Shown here in pieces: positions 1 to 63,983 of a stretch of DNA of 63,983 nt; position 1 is the first letter of the stretch, and each line of letters opens with the position of its first letter. The DNA lies in the IMG/VR virus record IMGVR_UViG_3300033076_000750, positions 1 through 63,983 of that record; one strand, given 5' to 3'. The position numbers and the translations under genes are program-made. This DNA is from a virus (taxonomy: Duplodnaviria; Caudoviricetes). The notes under the pieces are model-generated. The model was not told the origin of the DNA. It did not search any database and worked only from the letters and a program-made list of their open reading frames with translations.

Positions 1-238
1 TCACTCGCTGCCAGCAGCACACAGAAGGGCTACGAGTATCTCCGCGCCCTCATCGAGCGCAAATACAACGCCCACACCAGCGAGGAGCTGTTCATTCACG
101 CTGGCGTCAGCGCCAAGATCATCGCTGCGATCAAGAAGGTCGTGGAGTTCCTGCGTGACCTGCAATCAGCGCTCAAAGAGGGCGGCGACTTCAACTTGGT
201 CAAAGACATCGCAGACAAGGCGGAGATGGCGTTCCTTG
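1..238. repeat. Terminal direct repeat, copy 1 (overlap of a circular genome)
   Basis: 1-238 matches 63746-63983; the first 77 nt are identical and I count 10 substitutions overall. Confidence 0.95.
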
Positions 239-3200
239 ACAGCGGCATCACCACCGGCAACGTCGATGCGCAGCGCAACGCCACAGCAGGCAAAGCAAAG
301 GCAGAGCCAATCGGCAACAGCGCCCGCGCACGAGCTATGGTCAACGAAGAGTTCGGAGCCATGGCGAAAGCCATGGGCATCGACATCATCCCGAACTACG
401 CTGGCCCATCCGCACACTACGTCATCAGCGAAGACGGCAAACGTCGTGGTGGTTACATCGAGATCAACCCGGTGAAGGTAGCTAACTGGTCACGAGGTCA
501 GATGATGGAAGCGATGCGTGAAGAGATGATCCACGCCATCGAAGATCGTGCGCTTGTCGCCGAGATGCAGAAGGCTGGCTACAAGCTGAGCGACCCCTAC
601 ATCCAGAGTGGCGACTACCATGTGGACTTCTTCAAAGGGGTCTATGACATGATGAGCCCAGAGCAGATCGCATACGTCAAGGACATCTACTCCAGCCACG
701 GCAACCGAGAGTATGTCATCGGCTCCGAGTTCCGCCGCATGTTGCTGCAAAAGGAGCACTACAACGGGCTCACGGAGTCGGCTATGGCAGGCGGCAAGAA
801 CAGCGCCAAAGCCAAGAAGGCAATCGCGGCAATCGCTGCTCTGCTCAAGACTGCGGTCAAGTATCTGCGGGCACTTGCCACCACCAACACCGAGGCTGGC
901 AAGCAAGCAGCACGCATCTACGAAGAGAGCCGCAAGATGCTTCAGAAGCTCGACCCTCGTGGTGATGCGAAGCCGCTGGCAATGGCTCGACCAAGCCCAG
1001 AAGGTGGAGTGATGGACATCATCAACGCAGACATTGAGAGGGATCACTGGAAGGCAACAGACCTCGACTCAGGCGAGGAGATCGTCTATCCAAAGACACA
1101 GACTCCACCACCACTGAAAGAGGGTAAGCGCTACAAGTTCACATCGGTAGTTGGCGATCAACTAGCGATGCAAGCTATGGCAGCACCCCAGCAACCCAAC
1201 GGCAAAGCCGCAGGATGGAACAACGGCATCCCGATCAAGCCCCAGGTGTCGAACCAGATGCCGGTCAAAGACGTGCGCAAGATGCCAGAGGCACCGAAGC
1301 AGCGCATGGCAGGTCCGAACTCGGACCCACTCGTTGGACTCCCATCGAAGGTAACGATCCCCGGCATCGGTGAGCGCACATTCGGACCATACCAGCCAGC
1401 CCGCGACACAGCCGTCGCCTACATGAAGCAGGCAGGCATGAGCTACGATCCGCCGCGCACCTATGCGAAGGTCAACAAGGATCGCGCAGCACGCATCGCC
1501 GCCGAGTTTGATGCGATGAAGCACGAACCGCAAGACCCGAAGGTGAAGGCCGCATACGCCGCACTGATCAAGGAGACGGTCGCTCAGTGGGAAGCCATCA
1601 AGAAGACCGGGCTCAAGGTCAGCCCAATGAAGCAAGGCATGACCGACCCATACGCAGCCAGCCCACGCCTCGCACAGATCGACGTTGAGGAGAATAACCA
1701 CCTCTGGTTCTTCCCAACAGACTTCGGCTTCGGCAACGATGTGACGGGCTTCGACCCCAAAGACAACCCGCTGTTCGAGTTCACGGGCGAGGTGATCGAC
1801 GGTCACAAGATGCGTGCCAACGACGTGTTCCGCATCGTCCATGACTACTTCGGTCACTTCAAGGAAGGCGTTGGCTTCCGCGCAGACGGCGAGGAGAACG
1901 CCTGGAGACAGCACGCCGCCATGTTCAGCCCCGAGTCCCGTGGCGCATTGACATCCGAGACACGCGGCCAGAACTCGTGGCTCAACTTCGGCCCACACGG
2001 CGAAAAGAACCGCACGGCCAAGGTTGAGGACACGGTGTTCGCCGACCAGAAGATCGGGCTCATGCCAGAGTGGACATGGCTAGAAGGAGCTGGAGACACG
2101 CAAGCAATGGCAGCGCCATCACGCGGCTACCTCGGCACGATCACCGAAGACAACGAGGTCATCGGAGTTAAGGTCAACGACCTCTCAAAAGCATACCACA
2201 GTGACTACCGGGAGATCACCAACGCCAGTGAAGGATTCCAGGGAGACTTCCGCTACAACGCCGACGACAAGATCGTCTATTGGTGGAACCCAGGCAGCTT
2301 GAACCCAGGTCACAAGCAGAAGGTCGCCGACTGGCTCGAAGCCAACGGTCAGGAAGTGAAGTCCCACAAGAACGTGAAGGGTAGCCAGGAGGCGTTCGCG
2401 AGAGCCCACGGGGTCCAGGCGATGGCTGCTCCAATGCCGAACCAAAAGGTCACAGCCTACCATGGTAGCCCCTACCAGTTCGACAAACCAAGGCGCTCAT
2501 CGACTGGCTTCTGGCTTACCACCGAAAAGAGTGTCGCCGAGCGCGGCTACGCAAGGGGTGGCGAGGTAAAGCAATACACGGTTGACACCACTGGTTTTGC
2601 TGACCTAACGAGAGACAAGGAACTCGCCAAGAAGCTGATCAAGGCATACAACACCGAGCCAGATGTGATCGAAGAAGATCGCAAGATTGGCGTGGACCCA
2701 GAATACGCAGCAACCATCTTCTCCGGCGCTGAGCCCGAGTCCATTCTCCGTGACATGGGATACTCTGGCGCAATCGTGTGGGAGGAGCCTGGAGTTGCCT
2801 CAATCAACGCCTTCGACCCAGACAAGTCGGTCCAGGCGATGGCTGCGCCACAGTCCGAACTCAATCTCGGCAAGAAAGCTGACGCAGACTTCTTGCGCCA
2901 GAAGAACGTGAAGCGCATCATCGACCAGACAGCACGCCGCCACCCGGAAGCGAAGCTGGTTAGCTATATCAAGGACGGTGACAAGTTCAGGCTCGATGAC
3001 AAGGGCTTGCCAGCAGCACACCCAGAGGAATACAACTTCGCAGAATCGACCCTCGCCAAGAGCGCGATGAAGGGTCTTCGAGGCGATGCTCGCCTCAAGG
3101 CATTCGAGCGTGCGCTCGCCGACAAGCTCAAGGGCTTCTACGACCAGATCAAAGGCCAACCCGAGGTTATGGCTGGCAAGGAGTGGTATCGCGTGGCTCG

Positions 3201-6200
3201 TGAGAAGCTGGTCAACGTGTTCGGTGACGACACGATGCTCTTCGCGCAGTTGCTCGCCGCGACCTCCGCACGCACGCCGGTCCAGCAGAACTTCGAGCAG
3301 GCTCTCGATGCCTACAACGGCATCTACGAAGGCCGCTTCAATGGCATGACCGAGCGCTACCTTGACGCCATGAAGTCCCTGGAGGCCGGAGAGCTGCGCT
3401 TCAGGAAGTCCATCGGCAACAACAAGATGGGCGATGTGGTGACGCCAAAGAGCTTCCGCGAGTGGCTGGACATCGAAGGCATCATGCCTCGCCGTGAGAA
3501 CGGAAAGAAGTTCAACGCCAACTCCATGCAGGTGCTCAACGTGATCGCTGGCGTATGGCGTGAGAAGCTGGGTGGACCGAAGACCGCGCAGTTCTCCGAC
3601 AACCTCTCAGGAGCCTCACTGGAGGCCACCGTTGACGTTTGGGCGGCTCGCACCCTGCACCGCATGTCCAACGAGCAGGAAGGGGCACGCTGGCGCATTC
3701 TGCCAGAGGCTGAGACGGGCGTGAACAACGAGGACTTCGCCATCGGGCAGGCTGCATTCAAGATCGCCGCCTCCGAACTCGGCATGAACCCAGACGACCT
3801 CCAGGGCGTGTTGTGGTTCGCTGAGAAGCGCCATTGGGCAAACAACGGCTGGACACGCGCTGCCGGTGCCGAACTCTCGGACTTCAGCAGCCTCCTCGAC
3901 TTCGTGACCACTGAGGGTGGAAAAAAGGTCTTGCGCATCGACAACGGACAAGGGATGCTGGCCTTCGATGACACCGACACCACAAGAACCACTGGACCTG
4001 AGACGCGAAGGATTCGTTCCCGTGCGACTGGAGCAACTCAATCTGTCCAAGGAGGAGCAGGAAGCTCTGCGCAAACAGCAGCAGGACGAGGACCAGAGCG
4101 AGTAGCGGCTGAAGAGCAGCGCTCGCTGTTCATGTCTGCGCCAAAGATCGAGAATCTAACCAAGACTTCGATCCAAGGGATGGATGCCGAGACTGGCAAG
4201 CCAATCACATTCAAGTTCCTTCACAACAAGTCGAGCTACACAAAGGAGCGCGGCAGACCATACAAGCCCTCGAAAGACGAGATGTTCGACCGTGGCTATG
4301 AGCCATCCGGGCAATACATGGTCGCCACAGAGGACGACTATCTCATCAGGTCGTATCCAAACGACTACATCACTGGCACCACTACATTCAACAACCCAAT
4401 CGTCATCAAAGCTGGGGAGTATGGCGAGGAGTCATCGTGGAAGCGCTCGCTGTCCAAAGCCTATGGGGGCAAGTCTGGGAAAGCTCTGTCCAAAGCCATC
4501 ATAGCATCAGGGCACGACGGCATCATCACGGTTCCGTTTGCTGGCAACCACGGAGAGATCGTTGACCTAACGACATTCGATGAATCGAAGGCTCTATTCA
4601 TGGCATCACCGCAGCAGGACGCGGCATACGCCGCAGCCATCAAGTCTGGAGACACTCAGGCGGCTCGCAAGATGCTTGACGAGGCAGCGGCACAAGCTGG
4701 CTACACGGTCAAAGCATTCCACGGGACGAACAAATCGTTCCGCAAGTTCAAGGCTCAATTCGGTCGCGCCCTCTGGTTCTCAGAGGATCGCAAGAAGATC
4801 GAGGACGGCGAGTCTGGAGCCCAGGGCACAAAGAAGATCATGGAGGTCTATCTGCGCCCAGGCCGCGTGGCTGGACGGAAGGAATACAACAACCTCATTG
4901 AGGGACAGTTGCTACGAGACTTCGACAGCACGAAGCTGGATGAAGACTGGATCGTGTATTCACCGAACGACGTGAAGAGCGCTGAACTCGTGACCAAGTC
5001 TGGCGGCGAGATGATCCCGCTCTCGGAGCGATTCAATGACGCGACCGGCGACATCAGGTTCATGGCAGGTCCGAACTCGGACCCGCAGCGCGCAAACTTC
5101 GTTGAGCCCGGCTTCTACTCCGAACTCCAGCGCACGATTGCCAACAAGATGCCGAACTCGATGAGGGTGATCCCAGCGACCACCATCAAAGGCAAGGCAA
5201 CCACCGAGCGCACGATCACCAACCCCAAGACAGGGCAGGTGATCAAGGTGATCAAGGCCAACAACGAGCCCGACAAGACCTACCCAGCCAAGAGCATCGG
5301 TGAGCAGGTGCGTGCCATGCTGCTGAACGCGGACGTGACCGAGGACGAGATCAAGTGGAGCGGCATCGTGCCTTGGCTCGATGGTCGCGAGAGCGTGACC
5401 AAAGACGAGGTGATCGACTACCTGCGCACTGAGGGTCAGGTGCGGTTCGCGGAGTCGGTGCTATCCGATGATAAGGGGTTCAAGACACAAATAAACGAAG
5501 ACGAGACAGCCTATGCTGGCCACGATGTCGTTGACGTGATTGATCCTCGCAACGGATTCGTGAGATTCTCTGGCACCCCATCCGAGGCGCGTAACTGGAT
5601 TGACGAAGAGAACGGCGCTACAGGCAGGACTCCAAAATACGCCACCTACCAACTCCCAGGCGGGACGAACTACCGTGAGGTCGTGCTGGCGATGCCAACG
5701 AAGGAAACGGTGTATCGCGTTTATCAGAATGGCAAAATTCTCATCGCGCTCAACAAAAAGAGTGACGCTGATGAATTCATCGCCAAGAGAGCATCTTGGG
5801 ATAATGAGCCCGTTGAGATTAAGGAGGAAACCATCGACTCATGGAAGGGTGATTACACCTCCAGCCACTTCACTGACGTTCCAAACTACGTCGCCCACAT
5901 GCGAACCAACGAGCGCACAGATGCCGCAGGCAAGAGCGGGATGTTCATCGAAGAGCTTCAGAGCGACAGGCATCAGGCTGGACGCAAGAAGGGGTATCTC
6001 GAAGACAAGACATTCACCGACCTGACTCCAGAAGAACAGGCTCGCATGGAATACCTAAACAACGAAGCTCCGACCCCTCTGCGAAATCATCAACTCGCTG
6101 AACTTGAGAGGCTTCGTAGTCGCGCAAGACAGGCAAGAAACCCATCATTGCGCGAAGGCATTCCAGACGCACCATTCCGCCAATCATCAGCATGGGGTCT

Positions 6201-9200
6201 GCACCTCTTCAAGCGTGCGCTCCGCGATGCCGTGGAAAGCGGAAAGGAGTGGATCGGTTGGACAGTCGGCGACACACAGAACGACCGCTTCTCGCTGGAG
6301 AAGCAGATCGACACGCTCGGCTACCACAAGTGGACGCACCCAGAGAAGGGTGTGGTTTATAACCTGATGGCGGGCAAGAATAACAAAGAAGTATTCAAGA
6401 AGCAATCACTCACCGAGAGCGAGCTTGAAGACCATGTGGGCACCGAGATGAAGGACAAGATCGTGGCAGGAGAAAAGACCACCACCCAGAAGCAAAGCCA
6501 GATCGCTGCCGACCCTATCGAATGGTCTGTCATCTCGGGGCTCGACCTCAAGACAGGTGGCAGTGGTATGCGCGGCTTCTACGACAGGATCATGCCACGC
6601 GAGATCGGCGACTACGTCAAGCAGTGGGGAGGCAAGGTCGAGAAGAGCAACTTGATTGAGGGGAATAAATTCGACTTCGAGATGACCCCATTCGGAGTTG
6701 GCGACACCTTCGTCCTCAAAGACAAGATCACCGGCAAGTTCCTGGCAGACAGAGCCCAAGAAACATTCGCATCCAGGCAGGCTGACGGCGAGATCATGTC
6801 GAGGTCCGTCGCCAAGTCAGTGATTGAGGCATACGCGAAACAAGTCACCACTTCGATGTGGCGCATCAACATCACGCCACAGATGCGCCAGTCCATCGCC
6901 AATGAGGGACAAGCCCTGTTCATGGCTGGACCTCGCTCAGAGTCACCACAGGCAGCTGGAGAGGCGCTCGAAGCATGGCTGGCACTCCCAGCTACTGCCG
7001 CAGAGCTTCAGATGCTCCGTGAGCAGGCGTTAAGCGAAGAAACCGGCAAGCGCACGGTCGGCGATCCAGCACGAGCTGGACTGCTTGGATCGGGCGACAA
7101 GGAGAACCGTGAGCGTGACGCCATCATCCAGTTCCGCAAGAACCACAAGGCACCGGAGAAGGTTGTGGACTGGATGCGCGATGGGCAGGAACTCGCGGAC
7201 AGCGATCCAGAGATGGTCGCCGATGCGCTGATCGACAACTTCTACAACGGTGTGGGATACGACACGCCGGAGCAGGTGTTCGCCTCCGCCATCGTCGTCA
7301 GCCGCATGTTCAAGGAAGCCCGCCAGAAGGGCGATCCTGCGCTTCTGCGCAAGGCTCAGGCACTTGCATACGCGGACGGTGCTGCCCGCACGGAAAACGC
7401 ACGCATCCTGCGCAGTATGGTCGATCCTCACCGCTCGCCAGAGGAGCGGATGCACGAGTTCTTCAGCAAGCTCATCAGCACCCCATCCGAGTTCCAGCGC
7501 ATCGAGATCGAGAAGGCACCATCGCCACTTGCTAAAGAGCGTGAGATCGCGGAGCTGAAGGCGCAGATCGAGAAGCTGAAGGAGCAGGTCGGAACTCAGA
7601 CCCAAGGTCCGGTTGTCGAGCAAAAGAAGAAGCTCGAAAAGACCCTGGATCAGGCTCAGCAGCGCAAAGATCGCAAGACGTTGGTCGATGAATACACGGA
7701 GGCCCGCCGCAAGGCCGTCGCCGCCGCTCTGAAGAAGGAAGGCTTGAGCGAGGAAGACATCTTCGTGAGTGGCGAGGAACGCCTCGCCGCCCACAACTCA
7801 GACCCTGTTCAGGAGGCCATCGCCCAGCACCCGAAAGAGCACCGTGAGGCCATCAACTACATCATGCGTGGCTACTCGCACAAGGACATCGCACAGATGA
7901 CCAAGCTGCCAGTCAACGTGGTGGCAACCATCCATCAGGAGTTCCGTCAGAAGTCGATGCGCTCATCACTCGCCAAATGGGTGAAGAAGGGCAACACGCT
8001 GTTCGACACCATCCAGAACGGACTGAAGAAGGTCTTCGGCATGTCTATGGCAGCACCAGTCCCACTCGCCCAGGCACGCGCACAGATCATCGCAGAAGCT
8101 GAGATCGAGCGTCAGCTCAACGTGCTTGTGCCAACCGCACAGCAGGTCAACAGCGGCAAGATGGTGGCGGTGATCGTCAATAAGAAGTCCGGCCAAGAGG
8201 TCACGATCAAAGTTCCGTTCAGCGCATCCGACTTCCGTGCGTCCTACCGAGTTGGCCGCGCCATCAGCACCAGCGAAAGCAATGCCTTCGACAAGATTTA
8301 CGAGTATTGGATTTCGTTCGGCCTGCTCAGCGGTCCTGAAACGCATTGGGCGAACGTCGCTGGCAATGCCGGTATGCTCATGCTCCACCTCTTCGCGCAG
8401 AAGCCGATGGAGGCAGCGCTCAACTTTGCGTTCCGTGACCCCAACAGCACGACGTTCCGTGAGTTCGGAGAGATGATCAAGGGAGTGATCCCTGGCGTGC
8501 GTGATGCGTTCGCTCTCGCTGCTCTGGCGTGGGATGCAGAAGCCGACCCAATCGGAGCCCGCTACATGGATGAAACCATCGACCTCTCATTCGACTCCAC
8601 CGGCAACCTGTCGAAGGTCGGCACGATGAAGGGTCCGGCTATCCAAGGCACCAAGGGTCGCGTGTTCCGCGTGAGCACTCGCTTCCTGCTGGCGATGGAT
8701 GCGTTTTTTAAAGCGATCACTGCAAACATCGAGGTCGGAGCCCGCGCCTACCGCCTCGGCAAGATGTCCCAGGCCAAGGGCACGCTCGGCACAGCCAAGG
8801 GCGACCTCGAAGCGTTCATCGCTCAGCAGGTGGCAACCCCAGGATCAGAGTCATGGGAGCTTGCAATCCAGACATCTAAAGAACTCGCGTTCCAGGGTGA
8901 CAACTGGCTGACTATGATCGCCGGTAGCCTCACGGCCCGCAACCAGGAGATGGCTGTCGCCAACCTATCGAAGGATGTGGTGAAGGCATCTGCCAAGGGC
9001 AACTCAAGCGAGGTGTTCAACGCCAAGCTCTCGCGCTCAGCAATGATGTTCACAGGATTCGTGATGAAGTTCATCTTCCCATTCGTCAAGACCCCAACCA
9101 ACATCATCCGCATCGGCGCACGCAAAGCAGGACTCGGAACCATCGGCCTCCTGGCACTTGCCCCGTATGTCATGGCAAAGGGCGTTCACAACATCGCCAA

Positions 9201-10263
9201 AGGCCGAAACTTCCACGACGGCAATCAATCGGCGCTCATGATCACATGGCTCGCTGAACAGATTCAAGCCGCCGCCATGTGGATGTATGTGTGGAGCATC
9301 GCAGAGGGTGATGACGACGACAATGAGAAACCGTTCTACATTGTTGGTTCGCGCCCATACGGCACATCGAAGCCCGGTGAGCGCGAGGCTGCATACACCA
9401 AGAGCGGAGGCACCCAGGTTGTTATGGTCCGCAACAGCGACGGCACCTACACTCCATGGGCATACGGACGTTACGAGCCATTCGCCACCGTCCTCACCTC
9501 GGTCGTTGACACGATCCGCGAGATCAAGAATGCCAAGCGTCTTAACGAACTCGGAGTGCCTGGAGGCAGCATCGAGAACGTGATGACAAACTCCATTGCA
9601 TCCTTTGCCTCACAGCTCCAGGACAAGTCCTTCTTCCAGGGCTTCGCCAACGTCACCAAAGCCATCGAGAAGGTGATGAACAAAAAGAGTGGAGAGCTTG
9701 CGACTGACACCGTGAAGGGTTTCCTCCAGGGATTCGTTCCAAACATTGTTCGCCAGCCGATCCGTAACGACGATCCAAAGGTGCGCGACTCCAAGAAGGC
9801 TGATGCTCTCTATCTCGCGCTTCCCATGGGACGCTTTGCGGAGCCACTGATCGACTACTATGGTCGTGAGAGCGAGAAGCTCGGCACCAGCGTCAGTCGC
9901 CTGCTCATCCGCTCGGCTAACAAGCCACAGGACAGCACTAAGGCCGAAGAGATGATCGACCGTTGGAATCTCCTGCACCCAGACAAGAAGTTCCAGCCAT
10001 CGCGCATCTCGAAGTCTGATATGTGGATTTACGGGCCGAACAAGGAACGCCGCATCATCACCGACAACAAGCTGAAGACTGAATTCGAGCGTGAGCTTGG
10101 GCATGAAATCCTGCGCCGTCACAACGAACTCGCGGCCAGCATCGAAGGATTCCCAGACGACTTTGATGACCGTCTGCGCTCTGAGGCGACAAAGGCTCGC
10201 GAGCAGGTGCGCAAGGACTTTCTCAACAAGTCGTTTGAAAGACAGCAAAAGCTATTAAAGTGA
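1..10263 (+). CDS. Giant polyvalent/ejection protein, C-terminal part (continues from 57857 across the junction). Contains zincin-like, ART-PolyVal, HhH-like, EELQSD-type and C-terminal LPD38-like regions
   Basis: Frame open from base 1 to TGA 10263. Motifs: EEMIH; HDYFGH...ETRGQNSW; YHGS..GFWLT; FHGT..LWFS..IVYSPNDVKS; WY..LAATS..TVDVW..QGVLW; IEELQSD; FPFVKTPTNI. Confidence 0.85.
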   Translation, partial: SLAASSTQKGYEYLRALIERKYNAHTSEELFIHAGVSAKIIAAIKKVVEFLRDLQSALKEGGDFNLVKDIADKAEMAFLDSGITTGNVDAQRNATAGKAKAEPIGNSARARAMVNEEFGAMAKAMGIDIIPNYAGPSAHYVISEDGKRRGGYIEINPVKVANWSRGQMMEAMREEMIHAIEDRALVAEMQKAGYKLSDPYIQSGDYHVDFFKGVYDMMSPEQIAYVKDIYSSHGNREYVIGSEFRRMLLQKEHYNGLTESAMAGGKNSAKAKKAIAAIAALLKTAVKYLRALATTNTEAGKQAARIYEESRKMLQKLDPRGDAKPLAMARPSPEGGVMDIINADIERDHWKATDLDSGEEIVYPKTQTPPPLKEGKRYKFTSVVGDQLAMQAMAAPQQPNGKAAGWNNGIPIKPQVSNQMPVKDVRKMPEAPKQRMAGPNSDPLVGLPSKVTIPGIGERTFGPYQPARDTAVAYMKQAGMSYDPPRTYAKVNKDRAARIAAEFDAMKHEPQDPKVKAAYAALIKETVAQWEAIKKTGLKVSPMKQGMTDPYAASPRLAQIDVEENNHLWFFPTDFGFGNDVTGFDPKDNPLFEFTGEVIDGHKMRANDVFRIVHDYFGHFKEGVGFRADGEENAWRQHAAMFSPESRGALTSETRGQNSWLNFGPHGEKNRTAKVEDTVFADQKIGLMPEWTWLEGAGDTQAMAAPSRGYLGTITEDNEVIGVKVNDLSKAYHSDYREITNASEGFQGDFRYNADDKIVYWWNPGSLNPGHKQKVADWLEANGQEVKSHKNVKGSQEAFARAHGVQAMAAPMPNQKVTAYHGSPYQFDKPRRSSTGFWLTTEKSVAERGYARGGEVKQYTVDTTGFADLTRDKELAKKLIKAYNTEPDVIEEDRKIGVDPEYAATIFSGAEPESILRDMGYSGAIVWEEPGVASINAFDPDKSVQAMAAPQSELNLGKKADADFLRQKNVKRIIDQTARRHPEAKLVSYIKDGDKFRLDDKGLPAAHPEEYNFAESTLAKSAMKGLRGDARLKAFERALADKLKGFYDQIKGQPEVMAGKEWYRVAREKLVNVFGDDTMLFAQLLAATSARTPVQQNFEQALDAYNGIYEGRFNGMTERYLDAMKSLEAGELRFRKSIGNNKMGDVVTPKSFREWLDIEGIMPRRENGKKFNANSMQVLNVIAGVWREKLGGPKTAQFSDNLSGASLEATVDVWAARTLHRMSNEQEGARWRILPEAETGVNNEDFAIGQAAFKIAASELGMNPDDLQGVLWFAEKRHWANNGWTRAAGAELSDFSSLLDFVTTEGGKKVLRIDNGQGMLAFDDTDTTRTTGPETRRIRSRATGATQSVQGGAGSSAQTAAGRGPERVAAEEQRSLFMSAPKIENLTKTSIQGMDAETGKPITFKFLHNKSSYTKERGRPYKPSKDEMFDRGYEPSGQYMVATEDDYLIRSYPNDYITGTTTFNNPIVIKAGEYGEESSWKRSLSKAYGGKSGKALSKAIIASGHDGIITVPFAGNHGEIVDLTTFDESKALFMASPQQDAAYAAAIKSGDTQAARKMLDEAAAQAGYTVKAFHGTNKSFRKFKAQFGRALWFSEDRKKIEDGESGAQGTKKIMEVYLRPGRVAGRKEYNNLIEGQLLRDFDSTKLDEDWIVYSPNDVKSAELVTKSGGEMIPLSERFNDATGDIRFMAGPNSDPQRANFVEPGFYSELQRTIANKMPNSMRVIPATTIKGKATTERTITNPKTGQVIKVIKANNEPDKTYPAKSIGEQVRAMLLNADVTEDEIKWSGIVPWLDGRESVTKDEVIDYLRTEGQVRFAESVLSDDKGFKTQINEDETAYAGHDVVDVIDPRNGFVRFSGTPSEARNWIDEENGATGRTPKYATYQLPGGTNYREVVLAMPTKETVYRVYQNGKILIALNKKSDADEFIAKRASWDNEPVEIKEETIDSWKGDYTSSHFTDVPNYVAHMRTNERTDAAGKSGMFIEELQSDRHQAGRKKGYLEDKTFTDLTPEEQARMEYLNNEAPTPLRNHQLAELERLRSRARQARNPSLREGIPDAPFRQSSAWGLHLFKRALRDAVESGKEWIGWTVGDTQNDRFSLEKQIDTLGYHKWTHPEKGVVYNLMAGKNNKEVFKKQSLTESELEDHVGTEMKDKIVAGEKTTTQKQSQIAADPIEWSVISGLDLKTGGSGMRGFYDRIMPREIGDYVKQWGGKVEKSNLIEGNKFDFEMTPFGVGDTFVLKDKITGKFLADRAQETFASRQADGEIMSRSVAKSVIEAYAKQVTTSMWRINITPQMRQSIANEGQALFMAGPRSESPQAAGEALEAWLALPATAAELQMLREQALSEETGKRTVGDPARAGLLGSGDKENRERDAIIQFRKNHKAPEKVVDWMRDGQELADSDPEMVADALIDNFYNGVGYDTPEQVFASAIVVSRMFKEARQKGDPALLRKAQALAYADGAARTENARILRSMVDPHRSPEERMHEFFSKLISTPSEFQRIEIEKAPSPLAKEREIAELKAQIEKLKEQVGTQTQGPVVEQKKKLEKTLDQAQQRKDRKTLVDEYTEARRKAVAAALKKEGLSEEDIFVSGEERLAAHNSDPVQEAIAQHPKEHREAINYIMRGYSHKDIAQMTKLPVNVVATIHQEFRQKSMRSSLAKWVKKGNTLFDTIQNGLKKVFGMSMAAPVPLAQARAQIIAEAEIERQLNVLVPTAQQVNSGKMVAVIVNKKSGQEVTIKVPFSASDFRASYRVGRAISTSESNAFDKIYEYWISFGLLSGPETHWANVAGNAGMLMLHLFAQKPMEAALNFAFRDPNSTTFREFGEMIKGVIPGVRDAFALAALAWDAEADPIGARYMDETIDLSFDSTGNLSKVGTMKGPAIQGTKGRVFRVSTRFLLAMDAFFKAITANIEVGARAYRLGKMSQAKGTLGTAKGDLEAFIAQQVATPGSESWELAIQTSKELAFQGDNWLTMIAGSLTARNQEMAVANLSKDVVKASAKGNSSEVFNAKLSRSAMMFTGFVMKFIFPFVKTPTNIIRIGARKAGLGTIGLLALAPYVMAKGVHNIAKGRNFHDGNQSALMITWLAEQIQAAAMWMYVWSIAEGDDDDNEKPFYIVGSRPYGTSKPGEREAAYTKSGGTQVVMVRNSDGTYTPWAYGRYEPFATVLTSVVDTIREIKNAKRLNELGVPGGSIENVMTNSIASFASQLQDKSFFQGFANVTKAIEKVMNKKSGELATDTVKGFLQGFVPNIVRQPIRNDDPKVRDSKKADALYLALPMGRFAEPLIDYYGRESEKLGTSVSRLLIRSANKPQDSTKAEEMIDRWNLLHPDKKFQPSRISKSDMWIYGPNKERRIITDNKLKTEFERELGHEILRRHNELAASIEGFPDDFDDRLRSEATKAREQVRKDFLNKSFERQQKLLK
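1312..1327. promoter_or_regulatory. 16-bp palindromic operator/parS-like site (intragenic)
   Basis: GGTCCGAACTCGGACC. Confidence 0.75.
3968..4105 (+). CDS. Possible overprinted small ORF (+1 frame inside the giant gene)
   Basis: MTPTPQEPLDLRREGFVPVRLEQLNLSKEEQEALRKQQQDEDQSE; the main frame is low-complexity here. Confidence 0.35.
   Translation: MTPTPQEPLDLRREGFVPVRLEQLNLSKEEQEALRKQQQDEDQSE
5068..5083. promoter_or_regulatory. 16-bp palindromic operator/parS-like site (intragenic)
   Basis: GGTCCGAACTCGGACC. Confidence 0.75.
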
Positions 10264-21213: not shown

Positions 21214-21374
21214 CGAGACTCCACGACGAGTCTCCGCGCGCGCATTCACACGACCTCGTAGGGGCCAACCCCTGAACATGGTCACGCACAATCTTGGTCC
21301 ACACCAAGGCTCGTGAAATCGCGTGTCCTTGTTGTTGGCCGGAACACAACACAACAACACACAAGGACACCACA

Positions 21375-28150: not shown

Positions 28151-28178
28151 TTGACAGGTCCGAGTTCGGACCTATGAT
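28151..28178 (+). promoter_or_regulatory. Sigma70-type promoter with the operator palindrome as spacer
   Basis: TTGACA-GGTCCGAGTTCGGACC-TATGAT. Confidence 0.85.
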
Positions 28179-57821: not shown

Positions 57822-57856
57822 ATTGAACATCGCCAATAGGTCCAATATGTTTGCGA

Positions 57857-60800
57857 ATGGCATCACCATTCGCATACCTATACGCAGCCGGAACCGACGC
57901 ACGCACACCAAACACTCAGCGCAAACTGAGTCCCGTTGGAGAGGCGCTTTTAAAACAAACAGGTCCGAGTTCCGACCCACGAGTCCAGAAGGCTGAGCAG
58001 GACGATCAGGAGGTGCTCACGCCAAAGCGTCAGACGCACTTCAAATTGCCTGACGGCACGCTGAAGCCACTAACCGCCCCAAGCGGCGAGCGCTACCTGC
58101 TCAAAAACAGCGGATGGCGTCACCCACGCGACCCAAAGACCAACGAGCCGGTTTTGGTCAACGAGCAGGGCGAGGCCCGCTCGATCTACGACGACGCTCC
58201 ACGCATCAAGAAGGATGGCAAGATTTACGCAGCCCCCGCAGGCTACGAGAAGAAGGAGCTTGGTCCTGACCCAGACTTCAATCCGAACGCCATGACCAAG
58301 GAGCAGGAGAAGGCCAACCTCGCAAAGCAGAAGGAAGACGAGAAGACTGCCAAGGAGCAGGACGCATACGCCAAAGCCGTGCTCGAACGTGACGTGTCCC
58401 AGATCATCACTGACAGCGAGGTCAAGAGCCTGGAGACGGCAGCGGCTGAGAAGAAGGCCAAGCTCGCCGAAGCCGAGATCAGCGACAAACGCATGTTCGC
58501 CAAAGAAGCGCTAACCAAGGCCGAGCGTGATGCAGAAGATCGTAAGATTGGTTCGGCTGAAGAACTCGCCATCGCGCAGGAGCAATACAACGCCGCCCGC
58601 AAGTCTGAGGAGCAGGCCAAAGCCGCAACCCGCGCCATCGAAGCTCGCCAGATCGAAGAGGACTTGGCAAACGCCAAGCAGAAGGAAACACTCAATCAAT
58701 TCGAGAGCGCTCTGAAGCTGGAGAACACTGGTCGCCGCCAGTCTCTCTCCATGCCCACACCGACGAAGGCCAAGGAGCCAACGGCCAGCGAGACAGCGCC
58801 AGTCACCACACCAATCAGCGCCCTCCCAACAGGCAAGGGGCTGGACAAAGCTATCGCAGCCAGCAAAGCCCCAGACATCAGGATCGAGCCACCCATCGCC
58901 CCGACGTTCCTGACCGGCGCTCCACGCACCGACATCCCACCAGTCCCAGAGATCGCAGGAGGACCGCTGCCATGGCAGAAGCAGGCGAGCCGCACACTGA
59001 TCATCGAAGCCGACCCGAACTTCGGTGATGAGCCCATCGAGCCAGGAACCGACCTCACACAGGAAGTGGAGTTCGATGCCGCTGGCAAAGGATCGTTCAC
59101 CGGCAGCAAGCCACGCAAAGCCGCAGGCAAGAAGATGGGCGAAGGCATGACCGACGACGTGCCCCCAGAGTGGACATCAAGCAACGCACTCACTGCCCAG
59201 GCAACTGCCCGCGACACTGGCACCGATGTCATCCACACCGACAGCACTCTCAGCGTAGAGCTGCCAGCAAGCCGCCTCGACGCAGAAGGTGCGTTGAAGG
59301 TAGATGGCAAGCAGGTGGGGATTGTGAGGCGCACGATGCTCGGCCTGCCTGAGATCGAGCTGGCACCAGCAACCTACGGGCAGACAGCCAGCCCAAGCTA
59401 CCGCAGCAGCGACCCATTCAAGGGAGCGCCTGAATATGCCGCGCCATCTGCCACCTTCCGCGAGCAGCAGGCCAAGGCAGGCAATCCATTCGCCGCCGAG
59501 AAGCCATGGCGTGAACAGCGCTGGGGTGACAAGCAGGTGGCAGAGTTCATCGAGAACTGGAAAGGCTTTGGCGATGCTGAACGCCGCAAGCTCATGGACA
59601 GCGACTTGCTCAAAGAGATGGAGGGCGAGATGCCAGACGCACGCTTCCTGTTCACCAACGGCTACGTCAGCCTGCAACAGGCACGCCAGATCGACCAAGC
59701 GGTCTATGGTCGCAGCCAGAAGCTTCCTGACTTCACCACGAGCTTCGACGCATGGAAGGGTGGCGAGTCACCGGCAGCAGCCAAACTGCGTGAGATGGAG
59801 GCGGGTGGAATCACTGACGCCAGCAACCGTGAGCTTGTGCTAGCCCGTCAGCGCGTCCTGACCGAGTGGGAGGGCGAATACCGCAAACGCCACGGCACCC
59901 AGCCTGATTTCGACCCCAATGCGCTCGTATCGGCCAGCAAGACCATCGGTGGCACCATGAGCACTGGCTGGCAGACGTTCGTGTCTGACGCCGAAGACCT
60001 CGGCAGCAGTGTGGGTGGGTCCGTCTCAGGATTGGCCCAATGGTTTGGCAAGCAGGGCATTAAGATGGCAACCGGCACCCTTGGTCGGTCACTCGCCACA
60101 ATGAGCGCTCCAACCATCCCCCAGGAGCAGCAGCAGGCTATCCGCGACAAGCAGGCCCAGGGCTCCCCCCTCTCCAACGAGGAGAAGGCGCTGCTCTTCC
60201 GCATGAACTACACTGACGGCAAGAACGTGTCAGACGAAGCGCTCGCGATGATCGAGTTCCCCAAGGAGGCCGAGCTTGCATTCAAGAAGCTGCAATCCGA
60301 CATCAAAGCACTCGGCAGCAAGTGGAAGGAGAACGACGAAGACCCGCGCAACGTGATGGTCATCGCCCCAGGGCTCGCAGTTGAAGCAGGCATCAAATCA
60401 TTCGACACCCAGGCCCAGAAGGACGCAGCGGTCAAAGCCTACCTGGACAAGCGCAACAAGGGCGAAGGCAACGTGCTGGCTGACATCGACCTGCTCAAGG
60501 AGCACATCAACAACGACACGCTCACGCCTGACGTGCTCAAGACCCTCTCAGATCGCATCAAAGCGAAGGGCATGAAGAACGTGGGCATGATCGACAAGAG
60601 CAACGACGATCAAATCACGCAGAAGGGGCAGATGGAAGCTGACAAAGCCAACCGCTATGACCTCATGCAGCACTCGAATGCAGCAGCGCTCCTCGCTGGC
60701 TACAAGGAGACGCGGGACGAGAGCTACATAGACATGCTCAAAGACCTCATGTATTCGACCGCAGAGCGCGAGGAGCTGATCATGGAAGCTGGTCGCCACG

Positions 60801-63800
60801 CATCCATGGAAGGACTGATCCAGCACAGCGACTCGTGGGGGGCATGGAACCTCACCCGTCGTGGCATCCAGACCGACCTCAAAGAACTCGGCATCGAAGC
60901 GCTTGGCACCGGCACCGGATTCATCATCAGCAAGGCGCTTAACCCATCCACCCGCATCTTCAAAGCCGCTGGCAAGGCTGGCACCGCAGCCACCCGAGTC
61001 CAGCAGACGCTCGCTGCCGTAGATCGCGGCTTGTTCATGCTCCAGAAGTCGAAGACCCTGGCAGCGATGAAGGAGATGGGCGAGGCTTATAGCAAAGCTG
61101 GTTTGCGCGCCAACTCACCGATCCTCAATGCCATCGTGCAGAAGGGTAAAGAGATTCCTCTTCAGATGGTTGACGAGGGCATCCAAGGCTTCAGCGCTGG
61201 CCTATTCGAGGAAGGTAAGAGTGGCAAAGACCTCATGCACCAAGCTGTGCTTGAGGGTATGGGCGGATTCATCGCGACCGCCGCATACATCCCGCCAGTC
61301 ATGGGGCTCGGCGCTGTCGAGCGCATGAAGGCAAACACCGCCAGCCAAAAGCACGCCAAAGCATGGGCAGATAGCTGGAATGCCAGACACCCAGAGCAAC
61401 CAATCACTGCGGCTGACGCCATGGGCGTTCACGCAGTCATCGACCAGCGCGACTTGGCCCAGGCACGCAAGACGGCCTTGGAGGCAATCGCAACGCTCGA
61501 TGTGTATCTGGACGAGAACCAAGGCCCACCACCAGCGGAGCTATCGCAGCCGGTCGTCAACGCCATGTGGGACATCCACGGCATTGAGCAGGTCGGAATT
61601 CAGACCTATCAGGAACTTGAAGGCATCGGCGACAAGCGGATGAAGGCATTCGTCAAAGCTGGTTTGCGCACACTCACTGGACAACCACTGACGACCGCAG
61701 ACCAGCAGGCACTCGGAGCAGTCAATGCTGCCGGTGAACCACTAATCATCATGCACAAGGGTCAGGTCGTGTTCACCGACGCTGGTCTGGCTGAAGTATC
61801 GCAAGCAGCCCCAGGCATCTCTGGTCGCTACTTCCCAAGCAAGCAGGAGCAGCAGGAACTCGCGATCAACGCGGAAGCAGAGCTTGCAGCCACACCTCCA
61901 CCACTGCCAGTGGAGCCAGCACCGGCAGAAGCCGAACAATCACCCGCAGCATCGCCTGCGGAGCCGACGCTCGCTACCTCGGACCAGCTCACGTCGGGAG
62001 ACGTCGGCACCTCCGTGGTCGATGAGATCGACACGGAGCTTGATCGCAAGCACGCAGAATGGCAGGCAGGTAAGAAGGAGGTCGATGATGCTTTCAATGC
62101 CACAGAGCCACACTCTAAAGAGCGCAAAGAGGCGAGGGAAAAGAGAAAGCAGTGGGAAGAGAAGAATGGGCAGGTGCCACCTCCATCATCCAGCAATCCA
62201 CTGTCCGATGTCGGAACCTTGTCCAACAAGGACTCAGACACCAAGTTCTCACTGGCTGGAACTGGCTGGAGGCTGACTGGTGAAAAAGAAAAGTCCATTC
62301 GTGGCAAGACGATACTTCGCGTCACAAACGGCAAGGAGTGGCGCTGGGTGGAGGAGGGCGACCTAACCGATCAACATCGCCAGATTCTCGCCCGCTCATC
62401 CAGCACATCCGTGGACAAAGCGGCACACGACGCAGCCAGCAGCCCAACCAACAACAAGCGTCCACCGACCCCAGATGAGATCGCGGCAGGCAACTACGCC
62501 AAGGGGCACCCAACCATCGGTGGCATCAAGATCAGCATCGAGAACCCAGCAGGCAGCAAGCGCAGCGGCAAAGATGATGGCGGCAAGTCCTGGGAAGTCC
62601 AGATGAAGGCTCACTATGGCTACATGCGTGGCACAGTCGGCGCTGACGGCGACCAGATCGACGTCTTCGTGAAAGAGGGCACACCGGAGAACTTCGACGG
62701 CATGGCATTCGTCATCCCGCAGCGCAAGCCAGACGGCTCGTTCGATGAGCACAAAGTCATGATTGGTTACGCCAGCATTGAAGAAGCCAAAGCCGCATAC
62801 AAGGCCCACTACGCCAAAGGATGGCAGGGCTACCGCCCAGCGATGCCCGTGCCGATGTCCGAGCTTGCGTCCATGGTCAAGAGCGGTAAGCTCAAGAAGC
62901 CAAACCAACGCCAACGCACCAATGACACCACACCAGGAAAAACTACAGCGTCACCAACGCCAACGCCAACGCCAACTGACTCAGGACGAGTTGGCGAAGA
63001 TCAACGAGCCTCTGGAGCCACTGATGGAGGAGAAGTTCAACCAACACCTCAAGGAGGCGGGATTGGAGATGGTGTGGGGCAGGACGGAGCGCCAGATGCA
63101 AGTAGCCCTGGAGACTCTAGCGTCGGGAACGCCCCAGGAGAAGGAGTGGGCACGACGGATAGCAGAGGGGAGTGGTCCATCCGCACCAACAAAGGTCGCA
63201 AACTCACCATCCCAGCCAGTGCCGCCACCGACAGCGAGCAAGCCAAGAAAGCGCTCGCTGCTCAGCTTGGTGGAAAGCGTGGCGAAATGCTGGTGCTGGA
63301 TAGCCTCACGGCTCCTGATGTCGAACAAACGCTAGCACAGAGCATCTACGAAGAGGTGGCGAAGATCGCTGCCCGCGCTCCAGCTCGTGACAAGCAGTTG
63401 GTTATGCACCTGGGTCGCCTGATCCTGGCCGCAGTCCGCAAGCACGAGAAGATGTTGGGCATCGCATTCGCCGACATCAAGATCGTGAGCGGCAAGGTCG
63501 AGGGTGGCGGCATGTATGTGCAGGGCAAGACCCTCCACATCAGCCCAGCCACACTCATCCGCTCGATGACGCTGTTCAAGCCAGCCTACATCGAGACGTT
63601 CGTTGACACCGGCTTCTTCCACGAGGCGCTTCACCCGATCATCGAGATGAACGTCACGCCGCAGGAAGCTGCGATGTTCTGGGATGAGCTGAAGCCCGAG
63701 GCGCAGGAAGCGTTCCTCACGTCCTACGAGCAGGACAATCCAGGCTCACTCGCTGCCAGCAGCACACAGAAGGGCTACGAGTATCTCCGCGCCCTCATCG

Positions 63801-63983
63801 AGCGCAAATACAACGCCCACACGTCCGAGGAGCTGTTCATTCACGCTGGCGTCAGCGCCAAGATCATCGCTGCGATCAAGAGGGTCGTGGAGTTCCTGCG
63901 TGACCTGCAATCAGCGCTCAAAGAGGGCGGCGACTTCAATCTGGTCAAGGACATCGCGGACAAAGCGGAGATGGCGTTCCTCG
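57857..63983 (+). CDS. Giant polyvalent protein, N-terminal part (no stop in window; joins 1..10263 through the terminal overlap, ~5383 aa total). Contains an InPase domain and an HEALH zincin peptidase
   Basis: ATG 57857 MASPFAYL; same frame as the overlap; GNY.KGH..IENP.GS.RSG..W...M.AHYGY..T.GADGD.IDVF..FDEHKV (~62480-62850); FHEALH (~63620). Confidence 0.85.
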   Translation, partial: MASPFAYLYAAGTDARTPNTQRKLSPVGEALLKQTGPSSDPRVQKAEQDDQEVLTPKRQTHFKLPDGTLKPLTAPSGERYLLKNSGWRHPRDPKTNEPVLVNEQGEARSIYDDAPRIKKDGKIYAAPAGYEKKELGPDPDFNPNAMTKEQEKANLAKQKEDEKTAKEQDAYAKAVLERDVSQIITDSEVKSLETAAAEKKAKLAEAEISDKRMFAKEALTKAERDAEDRKIGSAEELAIAQEQYNAARKSEEQAKAATRAIEARQIEEDLANAKQKETLNQFESALKLENTGRRQSLSMPTPTKAKEPTASETAPVTTPISALPTGKGLDKAIAASKAPDIRIEPPIAPTFLTGAPRTDIPPVPEIAGGPLPWQKQASRTLIIEADPNFGDEPIEPGTDLTQEVEFDAAGKGSFTGSKPRKAAGKKMGEGMTDDVPPEWTSSNALTAQATARDTGTDVIHTDSTLSVELPASRLDAEGALKVDGKQVGIVRRTMLGLPEIELAPATYGQTASPSYRSSDPFKGAPEYAAPSATFREQQAKAGNPFAAEKPWREQRWGDKQVAEFIENWKGFGDAERRKLMDSDLLKEMEGEMPDARFLFTNGYVSLQQARQIDQAVYGRSQKLPDFTTSFDAWKGGESPAAAKLREMEAGGITDASNRELVLARQRVLTEWEGEYRKRHGTQPDFDPNALVSASKTIGGTMSTGWQTFVSDAEDLGSSVGGSVSGLAQWFGKQGIKMATGTLGRSLATMSAPTIPQEQQQAIRDKQAQGSPLSNEEKALLFRMNYTDGKNVSDEALAMIEFPKEAELAFKKLQSDIKALGSKWKENDEDPRNVMVIAPGLAVEAGIKSFDTQAQKDAAVKAYLDKRNKGEGNVLADIDLLKEHINNDTLTPDVLKTLSDRIKAKGMKNVGMIDKSNDDQITQKGQMEADKANRYDLMQHSNAAALLAGYKETRDESYIDMLKDLMYSTAEREELIMEAGRHASMEGLIQHSDSWGAWNLTRRGIQTDLKELGIEALGTGTGFIISKALNPSTRIFKAAGKAGTAATRVQQTLAAVDRGLFMLQKSKTLAAMKEMGEAYSKAGLRANSPILNAIVQKGKEIPLQMVDEGIQGFSAGLFEEGKSGKDLMHQAVLEGMGGFIATAAYIPPVMGLGAVERMKANTASQKHAKAWADSWNARHPEQPITAADAMGVHAVIDQRDLAQARKTALEAIATLDVYLDENQGPPPAELSQPVVNAMWDIHGIEQVGIQTYQELEGIGDKRMKAFVKAGLRTLTGQPLTTADQQALGAVNAAGEPLIIMHKGQVVFTDAGLAEVSQAAPGISGRYFPSKQEQQELAINAEAELAATPPPLPVEPAPAEAEQSPAASPAEPTLATSDQLTSGDVGTSVVDEIDTELDRKHAEWQAGKKEVDDAFNATEPHSKERKEAREKRKQWEEKNGQVPPPSSSNPLSDVGTLSNKDSDTKFSLAGTGWRLTGEKEKSIRGKTILRVTNGKEWRWVEEGDLTDQHRQILARSSSTSVDKAAHDAASSPTNNKRPPTPDEIAAGNYAKGHPTIGGIKISIENPAGSKRSGKDDGGKSWEVQMKAHYGYMRGTVGADGDQIDVFVKEGTPENFDGMAFVIPQRKPDGSFDEHKVMIGYASIEEAKAAYKAHYAKGWQGYRPAMPVPMSELASMVKSGKLKKPNQRQRTNDTTPGKTTASPTPTPTPTDSGRVGEDQRASGATDGGEVQPTPQGGGIGDGVGQDGAPDASSPGDSSVGNAPGEGVGTTDSRGEWSIRTNKGRKLTIPASAATDSEQAKKALAAQLGGKRGEMLVLDSLTAPDVEQTLAQSIYEEVAKIAARAPARDKQLVMHLGRLILAAVRKHEKMLGIAFADIKIVSGKVEGGGMYVQGKTLHISPATLIRSMTLFKPAYIETFVDTGFFHEALHPIIEMNVTPQEAAMFWDELKPEAQEAFLTSYEQDNPGSLAASSTQKGYEYLRALIERKYNAHTSEELFIHAGVSAKIIAAIKRVVEFLRDLQSALKEGGDFNLVKDIADKAEMAFL
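57962..57977. promoter_or_regulatory. 16-bp operator site near the start of the giant gene
   Basis: CA-GGTCCGAGTTCCGACC. Confidence 0.7.
62922..63335 (+). CDS. Possible overprinted ORF (+1 frame inside the giant gene)
   Basis: Phage-typical A/C leader CCAACGCACCA-ATG; helical protein-like 137-aa product; main frame is low-complexity. Confidence 0.45.
   Translation: MTPHQEKLQRHQRQRQRQLTQDELAKINEPLEPLMEEKFNQHLKEAGLEMVWGRTERQMQVALETLASGTPQEKEWARRIAEGSGPSAPTKVANSPSQPVPPPTASKPRKRSLLSLVESVAKCWCWIASRLLMSNKR
63746..63983. repeat. Terminal direct repeat, copy 2
   Basis: Matches 1-238. Confidence 0.95.

Follow-up and report, generated by a model that had tools for sequence, protein, structure and literature searches.

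In RNA viruses such as the picornaviruses (3C) and the potyviruses (NIa), the polyprotein embeds a protease that acts on a short consensus at each junction, and this consensus differs by virus lineage. The MARTX toxins of Vibrio combine conserved N-terminal and C-terminal scaffolds with variable, recombining effectors and an embedded protease that cuts unstructured linkers, and the prohead-protease systems, such as T4 gp21 and phiKZ gp175, use a lineage-specific short consensus that is cut many times in packaged and ejected proteins. Here, we analyzed a giant protein of 5,385 amino acids (aa) encoded by a virus of the Caudoviricetes (Duplodnaviria), IMG/VR record IMGVR_UViG_3300033076_000750, whose whole stretch of 63,983 nucleotides (nt) is called the window below. 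The protein is built of modules (designated m), and a short junction peptide, M-A-x-P in this lineage, recurs at their starts.

The closest described systems are the polyvalent proteins, which Iyer, Burroughs, Anand, de Souza and Aravind (2017; PMC5512222) proposed to be processed by embedded zincin-like metallopeptidases and compared with RNA-virus polyproteins. The main text of that article does not contain the word "linker", and its passages on cleavage define no recurring site, while its supplements may bear on this. The relevant passages of a 2026 preprint on phage phi24B describe a polyvalent protein of 2,811 aa in virions and report no sites. Since the giant protein has matches to InPase, ART-PolyVal and DUF7178, it is placed among the polyvalent proteins (PMC5512222), and judged from these domains it is of the type described in 2017. 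The likeness consists of a giant multidomain phage protein, the InPase (PF18823) and ART-PolyVal (PF18760) domains, a putative zincin-like HExxH domain and a portal-adjacent gene, whereas the junction peptide, its lineage variants and the exchange described here set it apart from what the main text of PMC5512222 presents. Full-text literature searches, supplements aside, found no description of recurring junction peptides in polyvalent proteins. The junction peptide, its lineage variants and module exchange at the peptide appear to be new; processing by an embedded peptidase was proposed in 2017.

With the RNA-virus polyproteins, the giant protein shares one chain and a recurring junction consensus that changes with the backbone bearing the protease candidate; it differs in belonging to a DNA phage, in having a metallopeptidase-like candidate rather than a chymotrypsin-like enzyme and in carrying accessory conflict modules rather than replication or capsid proteins. 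Scaffolds bracketing exchangeable modules recall MARTX, of which the giant protein is an analogue in mode and not a member: here, the target would be the bacterial host, delivery would be by the virion, and neither a cysteine protease domain nor RTX repeats were found with Pfam (both protein halves at E ≤ 0.01; twelve segments, with partial coverage, at E ≤ 1). A lineage-specific, short, recurring consensus is likewise shared with the prohead-protease substrates; however, the peptide of the window is absent from the capsid, the portal and all other open frames of at least 80 aa, and no prohead protease family was detected (36 open reading frames (ORFs) with PHROGs, 24 with Pfam), which is weak evidence alone.

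Recurrence and position of the junction peptide

The giant ORF contains 13 in-frame copies of M[AS].P against 1.37 expected from its composition, and 12 copies of the narrower M[AS][AGS]P against 0.35 expected (Table 1). When the residues were shuffled 20,000 times, the maxima were 9 and 6 copies, respectively, and none of the 20,000 shuffles reached the observed counts. No M[AS][AGS]P was found in the other open frames of ≥80 aa in all six frames of the window. A preliminary description of this DNA had listed 11 sites, each of which does hold an in-frame M[AS].P with the flanks given there, and had pointed out that the protein itself begins with MASP, which was found at 57857; this N-terminus and the ATMSAP at 60101 are the two sites beyond those 11.

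The consensus at the module starts is [Q/L]-x-M-A-[A/G]-P. Across 67 distinct sites from eight proteins, Met and Pro are invariant (67/67), with the second position being A in 61 and S in 6, and the third being A in 48, G in 16, S in 2 and R in 1. Upstream of the Met, Q (33 sites) and L (24 sites) predominate at position -2, and the other upstream residues vary.

An AlphaFold model of window positions 1177-4131 (985 aa, alignment of 19 rows, mean predicted local distance difference test score (pLDDT) of 63.4) revealed two confident domains, at about residues 51-308 (m04) and 571-922 (m07), with low-confidence segments at 1-48, 309-479, 518-570 and 923-985. The junction Mets at model residues 1, 44, 311, 416 and 555, together with 986 just beyond the end, all lie in segments of pLDDT <50, and those at 44, 311, 555 and 986 lie immediately next to one or the other confident domain. 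The preliminary description had placed most copies at apparent domain boundaries, and had named AlphaFold segment boundaries as a check and motifs inside folded domains as the contrary outcome; in the model of 1177-4131, the motifs lie in the low-confidence segments flanking the m04 and m07 folds and none lies inside a folded domain. The limits of two domain matches agree with this. The ART-PolyVal match of m06 covers residues 12-134 of 139 (E 8e-5, 23.9 bits, below the cut-off of 31.2), so that the Pfam profile of 140 positions fills almost the whole 139-residue module, and the matches of m04 in a phage database extend over query residues 118-372, from 7 residues after the motif Met to 6 before the next one. 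A fold search with the 985-residue multi-module model, including m04 and m07, gave no clear match.

Module exchange and lineage-specific peptides

A total of 310 relatives were obtained from a large protein collection (P identifiers), of which the best 120 were used in the analyses, and 46 loci from viral contigs (L identifiers) were found with an alignment query, a single-protein query having given no close relatives. M[AS][AGS]P, of which 0.3-0.4 copies are expected per protein, is present 5-13 times in seven of the best 120 relatives, P0003-5 (71-74% identity) and P0009-12 (37-44%), and 0-1 times in the other 113.

In the all-against-all BLASTP comparison of the eight full motif-bearing proteins, 133 of 432 internal alignment ends fell ≤8 aa from a motif, whereas 1,000 trials of random motif placement averaged 12.4 and never exceeded 36, and 48 of the 68 motif sites have an alignment end nearby. 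Among the flank clusters, 11 of the 17 upstream clusters seen at least twice join at least two distinct downstream flanks (the m11/m12 junction, which is among these 11, looks like divergence rather than a swap), and 8 of the 17 downstream clusters have at least two upstream partners. These alignment-end and cluster figures are unbiased, whereas a first module map was made from queries cut at the motif, and its zero distances arose partly by construction.

Within the window protein, eight of the 12 internal sites are breakpoints, with residues 751, 2912, 4273 and 4648 being conserved, collinear junctions. After ...EEQRSLF/M (a slash marks the junction throughout), m08 follows in the window and in P0004, a different module in P0003 and m10 directly in P0005, while ...DESKALF/M leads into the ART module in the window and into m10 in P0003 and P0004. 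The upstream flank of the LAMARP junction (982) meets four different downstream modules in the relatives, and m04 is preceded by four different modules. Domain gain or loss in homologs exactly at the motif had been proposed earlier as a check, and modules were indeed found to be gained, lost and reordered there. In the polyvalent proteins of two isolated or assembled phages that share m04 (L001 and L002), M[AS].P does not recur, with L002 having two scattered sites, and a search for natural gene splits at junctions among the loci that contain the start of the giant ORF yielded nothing informative.

The relatives without M-A-x-P carry another short peptide at the same aligned junctions. These are LF/ATAP, VM/AATAP and LQ/ASAP in P0008, LF/ASAP, LF/ATSP and QA/AAAP in P0006, LF/ANAP and VQ/AANAP in P0007, LF/A[AS]DRP in P0014 and LF/SAPRP in P0015. 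In the wider family, the junction reads [IL][RQ]F/MP[AES] (FMP-type) or F/QPA, and the homologous end of the ART module is SERFN..TGDIRF/MAGP in the window and SERFN.GTGDIRF/MPS in P0016 and P0064. The N-terminus was also considered as a general mimic of a junction, and this idea was dropped, as MASP or MPSP occurs only in close relatives and the FMP-type proteins lack an MP[AES] start.

Lineage peptides were sought in the 46 loci by a de novo search for over-represented tetrapeptides. AQRI occurs 6-8 times against 0.07 expected in four loci (within L032-37), where it is preceded by LF, IN, IK or LN, and other loci have recurring peptides of their own, namely [ST]QPQT (L012), LKSQNL (L015) and L[LFR]SR.A (L014). 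In the loci of the relatives, AQRI, QPQ and LKSQ are confined to the giant frame, with 0 copies elsewhere, and the peptide of L004 has 7 copies inside and 2 elsewhere. Double lineage peptides a few residues apart were also seen, as in AQRI-NIQ-AQRI (L034, residues 264-274) and MAAPMSKP (P0003-5).

Of 124 proteins, 18 passed a strict test that required an exact tetrapeptide with ≥3 distinct letters, ≥4 copies and Poisson p < 1e-6, compared with a single one of the 124 shuffled controls. With a spacing rule added, 17 of 106 further representatives (separate 50%-identity clusters) passed against 1 of 106 shuffled, with QSER, ASPT, AAPL, TERP and LKSG among their peptides. Some of these 17 passes (AEAK, TPEE) are not junction-like, and the test misses degenerate motifs; its figures show the recurrence of the phenomenon, not its frequency.

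A programmed translation pause or peptide-bond skipping site, giving folding time or protease-free release, would also sit between domains as the modelled sites do, and the A-G-P and A-A-P endings look like those of arrest peptides from bacteria, such as SecM, which is a resemblance only. However, peptides of the arrest and 2A types depend on a longer run of conserved residues upstream, whereas here the upstream residues vary except at position -2, and the peptides of other lineages (AQRI, QSER, LKSQ) are unrelated and without Pro; we therefore consider such a site highly improbable.

Comparison of shared modules revealed which part of the protein the peptide follows. The window shares modules m04 and m07 with P0006, P0007 and P0008 at 68-80% identity, whereas identity over the backbone (m01, m10, m11, m12) is 30-41%. 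Nevertheless, m07 starts with QA/MAAP-QSELNLGKK in the window, VM/AATAP-ELNLGRK in P0008, QF/AAAP-ELDLGRK in P0006 and VQ/AANAP-ELNLGRK in P0007. As modules of high identity carry the peptide of their own backbone, the junction peptide is, on these alignments, a property of the recipient backbone and not of module ancestry, which is the pattern expected if a backbone-encoded factor reads the peptide.

The codons of the motif vary synonymously, with GCA 7, GCT 4, AGC 1 and TCT 1 at the second position and CCA 8, CCG 3, CCC 1 and CCT 1 for the Pro, and all four codons of AQRI vary among its eight copies in L034. Because of this synonymous variation, selection is judged to act on the peptide and not on the nucleotides. 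Only 2 of the 78 junction pairs share more than 13 identical nt, namely 24 nt (1306/5062) and 18 nt (2422/2839); a third pair has 13 nt in common, and none of the remaining 75 has more than 11 nt. The longest match is an identical direct repeat at 1306-1329 and 5062-5085 (ATGGCAGGTCCGAACTCGGACCC plus one base upstream), whose two copies bracket the whole variable cargo region. Recombination between them would delete m04-m09 in frame; neither a form so deleted nor a contig joining across a deleted module was found in the contigs of three sequencing runs. One run contains the entire stretch and may be its source, and no RNA run was listed as containing it.

These data bear on whether the motif is a joint at the DNA level, at which short nucleotide stretches promote exchange and the peptide is merely their translation. 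Exchange of modules exactly at the motif and the two longer shared stretches fit such a joint. However, the remaining junction pairs share 13 nt or less, the codons vary synonymously in the window, L004 and L034, and lineages with MAAP, ATAP and ANAP share modules at 68-80%, so that junction homology is unusable between them. A DNA-level joint is thus very unlikely.

Two of the linkers were said earlier to encode a 16-bp operator as well, and the element is present at 1312 and 5068, 6 nt past the junction ATGs. The palindrome, GGTCCGA-NN-TCGGACC, has 15 copies in the window with ≤1 mismatch against 0 expected (1312, 5068, 13487, 16211, 20327, 23901, 28157, 34766, 39068, 43699, 47844, 50033, 53975, 55356 and 57962), and three of these lie inside the giant ORF, encoding GP[NS]SDP. 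The intergenic copies at 28157, 39068, 50033, 53975 and 55356 fit exactly between TTGACA and a TAnnnT-like hexamer, so by its position the intergenic palindrome appears to fill a sigma-70-type promoter spacer and is operator-like. The palindrome was not found in the 23-kb locus of L004, the nearest relative with DNA.

At 1306 and 5062, ATGGCA sits where the intergenic copies have TTGACA, which together with the Met invariant in 67/67 sites and the MASP start of the whole protein could suggest that the Met codons are internal translation starts, from which modules are also made separately. Against this, a transcript begun after the 16-bp element would miss the junction ATG, a Shine-Dalgarno-like word occurs at -16..-6 of 1 of the 13 motif ATGs versus 21 of all 155 in-frame ATGs, and the relatives have Ala, Ser, Gln or Thr instead of Met at the same junctions. 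Of the explanations weighed here, internal starts are the least probable.

The candidate peptidase and proposed cleavage of the junctions

The zincin-like domain of the giant protein is the sole visible protease candidate, as far as domain searches reach, its link to the junctions being inferred; no peptidase families were found among the other window ORFs (36 with PHROGs, 24 with Pfam). Two zincin-like motifs had been proposed, of which the HEALH at 63620-63634 stands, whereas the EEMIH at 520-534 proved to belong to a degenerate copy that has lost the first His. The REEMIH form of this twin is conserved in P0003-P0010, and the inactive-looking twin is therefore itself under selection.

In the alignment of nine sequences, the window and eight locus relatives, E94, H97, Y128, G144 and E146 are invariant, with E94 and H97 being the E and second H of HEALH and E146 the Glu of GYEY. 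The model of the domain (pLDDT 87.9, predicted template modelling score 0.81) has N-terminal helices, three strands, the HExxH helix and further helices, and this order of strands and helices matches the zincin core as set out in section 8 of PMC5512222. P0006 carries HEIGGH, and HExxxH is described as a real variant in the passages of PMC5512222 on these domains.

Of the three readings of the motif that the preliminary description offered, cleavage appears best supported, because it accounts for the repeated occurrence of the peptide, its place at the edges of modules, the variation that goes with the backbone and the selection at peptide level; restarts of translation found no support, and of the recombination reading the exchange at the motif stood while the DNA-level joint did not. 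We consider it on balance probable that a co-evolving protease encoded by the phage, and most likely the embedded zincin, cleaves at the junction peptides and would thereby release the modules. That the sites are cut, and by which enzyme, at which bond and at what time, we infer as follows. The giant protein would be made as one chain of 5,385 residues and ~590 kDa, in which each module opens with a peptide read and cut by a backbone-encoded protease, most probably the embedded zincin, and the chain would be divided into its modules by this protease either inside the capsid or once injected. The residue that zincins chiefly recognise is the one following the cut, and since the first residue of the lineage peptide differs by lineage (M, A, Q, T), the scissile bond is probably just before that residue (Met here), after the conserved L/Q-x. 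Once released, the modules would act separately, and any in-frame join at a junction would be viable; whole modules could therefore be swapped at the motif, and moved modules would bear the peptide of the recipient. Cleavage and recombination are compatible, since with release the joins at junctions survive selection.

Several observations weigh against this explanation. The peptide does not mark every boundary, as m04 runs into another domain without a junction peptide in P0003-5 and P0006, and m05 and m06, which have few relatives, were poorly modelled, so that the junction at 2422 (model residue 416) is uninformative. Structure and profile searches did not place the candidate among known peptidases: Foldseek with the zincin-like model gave nothing at E ≤ 0.001 and weak rows including abylysin and selecase (probability 0.25-0.38), the best VIA-align hits (Z 6.7) were unrelated helical proteins, with 2ejq at Z 4.8, and Pfam gave no match at E ≤ 1 on the zincin-like segment. 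The motif itself is not always intact, as L016 and L017 have Glu in place of the first His of HExxH, and P0013 (REELIH) and P0015 (EEMTH) nonetheless keep repeats resembling junctions ([LF][FY]AG.r in six copies in the former, LFSAPRP in the latter). P0013 has another domain, with HEWFH at residue 2461, and P0015, whose first residue is Leu and whose contig is only as long as the gene, appears to be N-terminally truncated. A shallow domain profile finds the zincin-like domain in 16 of the best 120 relatives (the motif being intact in 10), and in the FMP-type proteins the HExxH/HExxxH was recognised by pattern match only, in 7/7 chosen proteins, as a single copy after a '..IN.D..' strand-like stretch at residues 640-2050. 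A complex prediction for the zincin domain with a 40-residue junction segment, run with no controls, scored 0.00 and counts neither way.

The main rival, which we regard as unlikely, holds that the peptide is an uncut linker cap, a docking motif (for a chaperone, the capsid interior, the portal or a host factor) or a hinge, and that the chain stays intact as beads on a string. It fits the flexible segments, the selection at peptide level and, if a partner co-evolves, the lineage variants, as well as the persistence of junction repeats despite the degenerate zincin motif in P0013 and P0015. Against cleavage and in its favor, there are reports of polyvalent proteins that enter the virion without being cut, such as the N4 virion RNA polymerase (cited in the text of PMC5512222). 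However, a hinge needs a composition and not four to six strict residues with Met and Pro invariant in 67/67 sites, no partner was identified, and the presence of the peptide in no other protein of this phage would be unusual for a general docking signal. Free reordering of modules is also easier to tolerate if the modules are released, as the cleavage reading supposes.

Genome context, the wider family and meaning for phage biology

The window ends with 238 bases that match its first 238 at all but 10 positions (1-238 and 63746-63983), so that the record represents a phage genome of about 63.7 kb assembled as a circle, in which the giant ORF is joined across the window ends. The overlap falls within the giant gene, where one of the mismatches changes Lys to Arg, and it looks like an assembly wrap-around over strain variants and not an exact terminal repeat. 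The record is rated 100% complete by CheckV. The joined ORF (57857..63745 + 1..10263) is a stop-free frame of 16,158 nt encoding 5,385 aa, and homologues of 5,612-5,633 aa align unbroken over the join point. An in-frame TTG lies just upstream of its ATG, at 57851.

The giant gene is directly upstream of a SU10-type portal gene (PF23899; 11332-13425), and genes for the head, the tail, replication and the terminase come after the portal, almost all of them on the + strand. No family of prohead proteases or scaffold proteins was recognised in the interval from the portal to the putative major head gene (21294-23003). The conserved N-terminal scaffold of the protein comprises the InPase domain, the zincin-like HEALH domain and the degenerate twin of the latter, and the cargo set between the N-terminal and C-terminal scaffolds varies, with two ART-like domains, DUF7178, the m04 domain and others. 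A hydropathy scan of the whole giant protein found no window reaching the membrane-span threshold. The coordinates of all features are shown in Table 1.

Table 1. Features of the giant gene and its junctions in the window
Feature	Position	Strand	Remark
Giant ORF, first part	57857..63983	+	Starts at the ATG of MASP; from 63746 repeats window 1-238
Giant ORF, second part	1..10263	+	Ends at stop codon
MASP, N-terminus of the protein	57857..57868	+	Common to P0004, P0005 and P0012; MPSP in P0010
Palindrome copy, one mismatch	57962..57977	+	Near N-terminus; encodes GPSSDP
Junction ATMSAP, residue 751	60101..60112	+	Same site in P0005
InPase domain PF18823	62477..62878	+	Pfam E 1.3e-46, above cut-off
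Zincin-like domain	63344..63982	+	HEALH 63620-63634; Glu of GYEY 63779-63781
Degenerate twin of zincin-like domain (REEMIH; EEMIH 520-534)	298..990	+	By alignment; profile second-domain matches in 6 relatives
Junction LAMARP, residue 2293	982..993	+	At end of zincin pair
Junction QAMAAP, residue 2358	1177..1188	+	In-frame motif
Junction QRMAGP, residue 2401	1306..1317	+	Start of m04
Module m04	1306..2106	+	Widely shared domain, HDYFGH motif; confident fold at model residues ~51-308
16-bp palindrome GGTCCGAACTCGGACC	1312..1327	+	Inside junction; encodes GPNSDP
Junction QAMAAP, residue 2668	2107..2118	+	Start of m05
Module m05, 105 aa	2107..2421	+	Found in P0004 and P0005 only
Junction QAMAAP, residue 2773	2422..2433	+	Start of m06
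Module m06, 139 aa	2422..2838	+	Weak ART-PolyVal-like match
Junction QAMAAP, residue 2912	2839..2850	+	Start of m07
Module m07	2839..4131	+	DUF7178 (Pfam match 3559-3822, E 3.7e-10), disordered tail
Junction LFMSAP, residue 3343	4132..4143	+	Start of m08
Module m08, 156 aa	4132..4599	+	Delimited by junctions
Junction LFMASP, residue 3499	4600..4611	+	Start of m09
Module m09, ART-PolyVal PF18760	4600..5061	+	Pfam match 4699-4866, E 6.1e-8, above cut-off
Junction RFMAGP, residue 3653	5062..5073	+	Start of conserved m10
Conserved C-terminal scaffold m10-m12	5062..10263	+	By homologue comparison
16-bp palindrome GGTCCGAACTCGGACC	5068..5083	+	Inside junction; encodes GPNSDP
Junction LFMAGP, residue 4273	6922..6933	+	Start of conserved m11
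Junction MSMAAP, residue 4648	8047..8058	+	Start of conserved C-terminal m12

The family of m12 (8047-10263) has 1,822 representatives (50%-identity clusters) at E ≤ 0.001 and 828 at E ≤ 1e-10. The module is nearly always found at the extreme C-terminus of long proteins (2,000-7,100 aa), with invariant motifs that include EGDDDD and FPFV.TP.N, and a tblastn search with m11 and m12 gave no match to m12 in 50,697 isolated phage records. On the strength of these searches, m12 defines a very large uncultivated family. Module m04, with its conserved HDYFGH motif, was seen in 215 phage records, 199 of them of Mycobacterium phages, in which it is named inconsistently as RelA/SpoT, as a lysin with a crystallin motif or as hypothetical.

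We tentatively propose that each lineage of the m12 family (at least 1,822 clusters) may have its own junction peptide of 4-6 residues, read by a co-evolving backbone protease. If this is true, anti-host effector domains would be plug-and-play cassettes that move between phages and are re-labelled with the peptide of the recipient, and these proteins would be a DNA-phage counterpart of the RNA-virus polyproteins and the MARTX toxins, with predicted cleavage sites readable from sequence. Should the pairs of protease and site prove specific, they might also find use as orthogonal tools for processing. Phages and plasmids widely carry polyvalent proteins, and a junction peptide that can be read from the sequence gives exact predicted cut sites, delimits unknown effector domains in thousands of giant metagenomic proteins and suggests how phages swap anti-host domains as cassettes.

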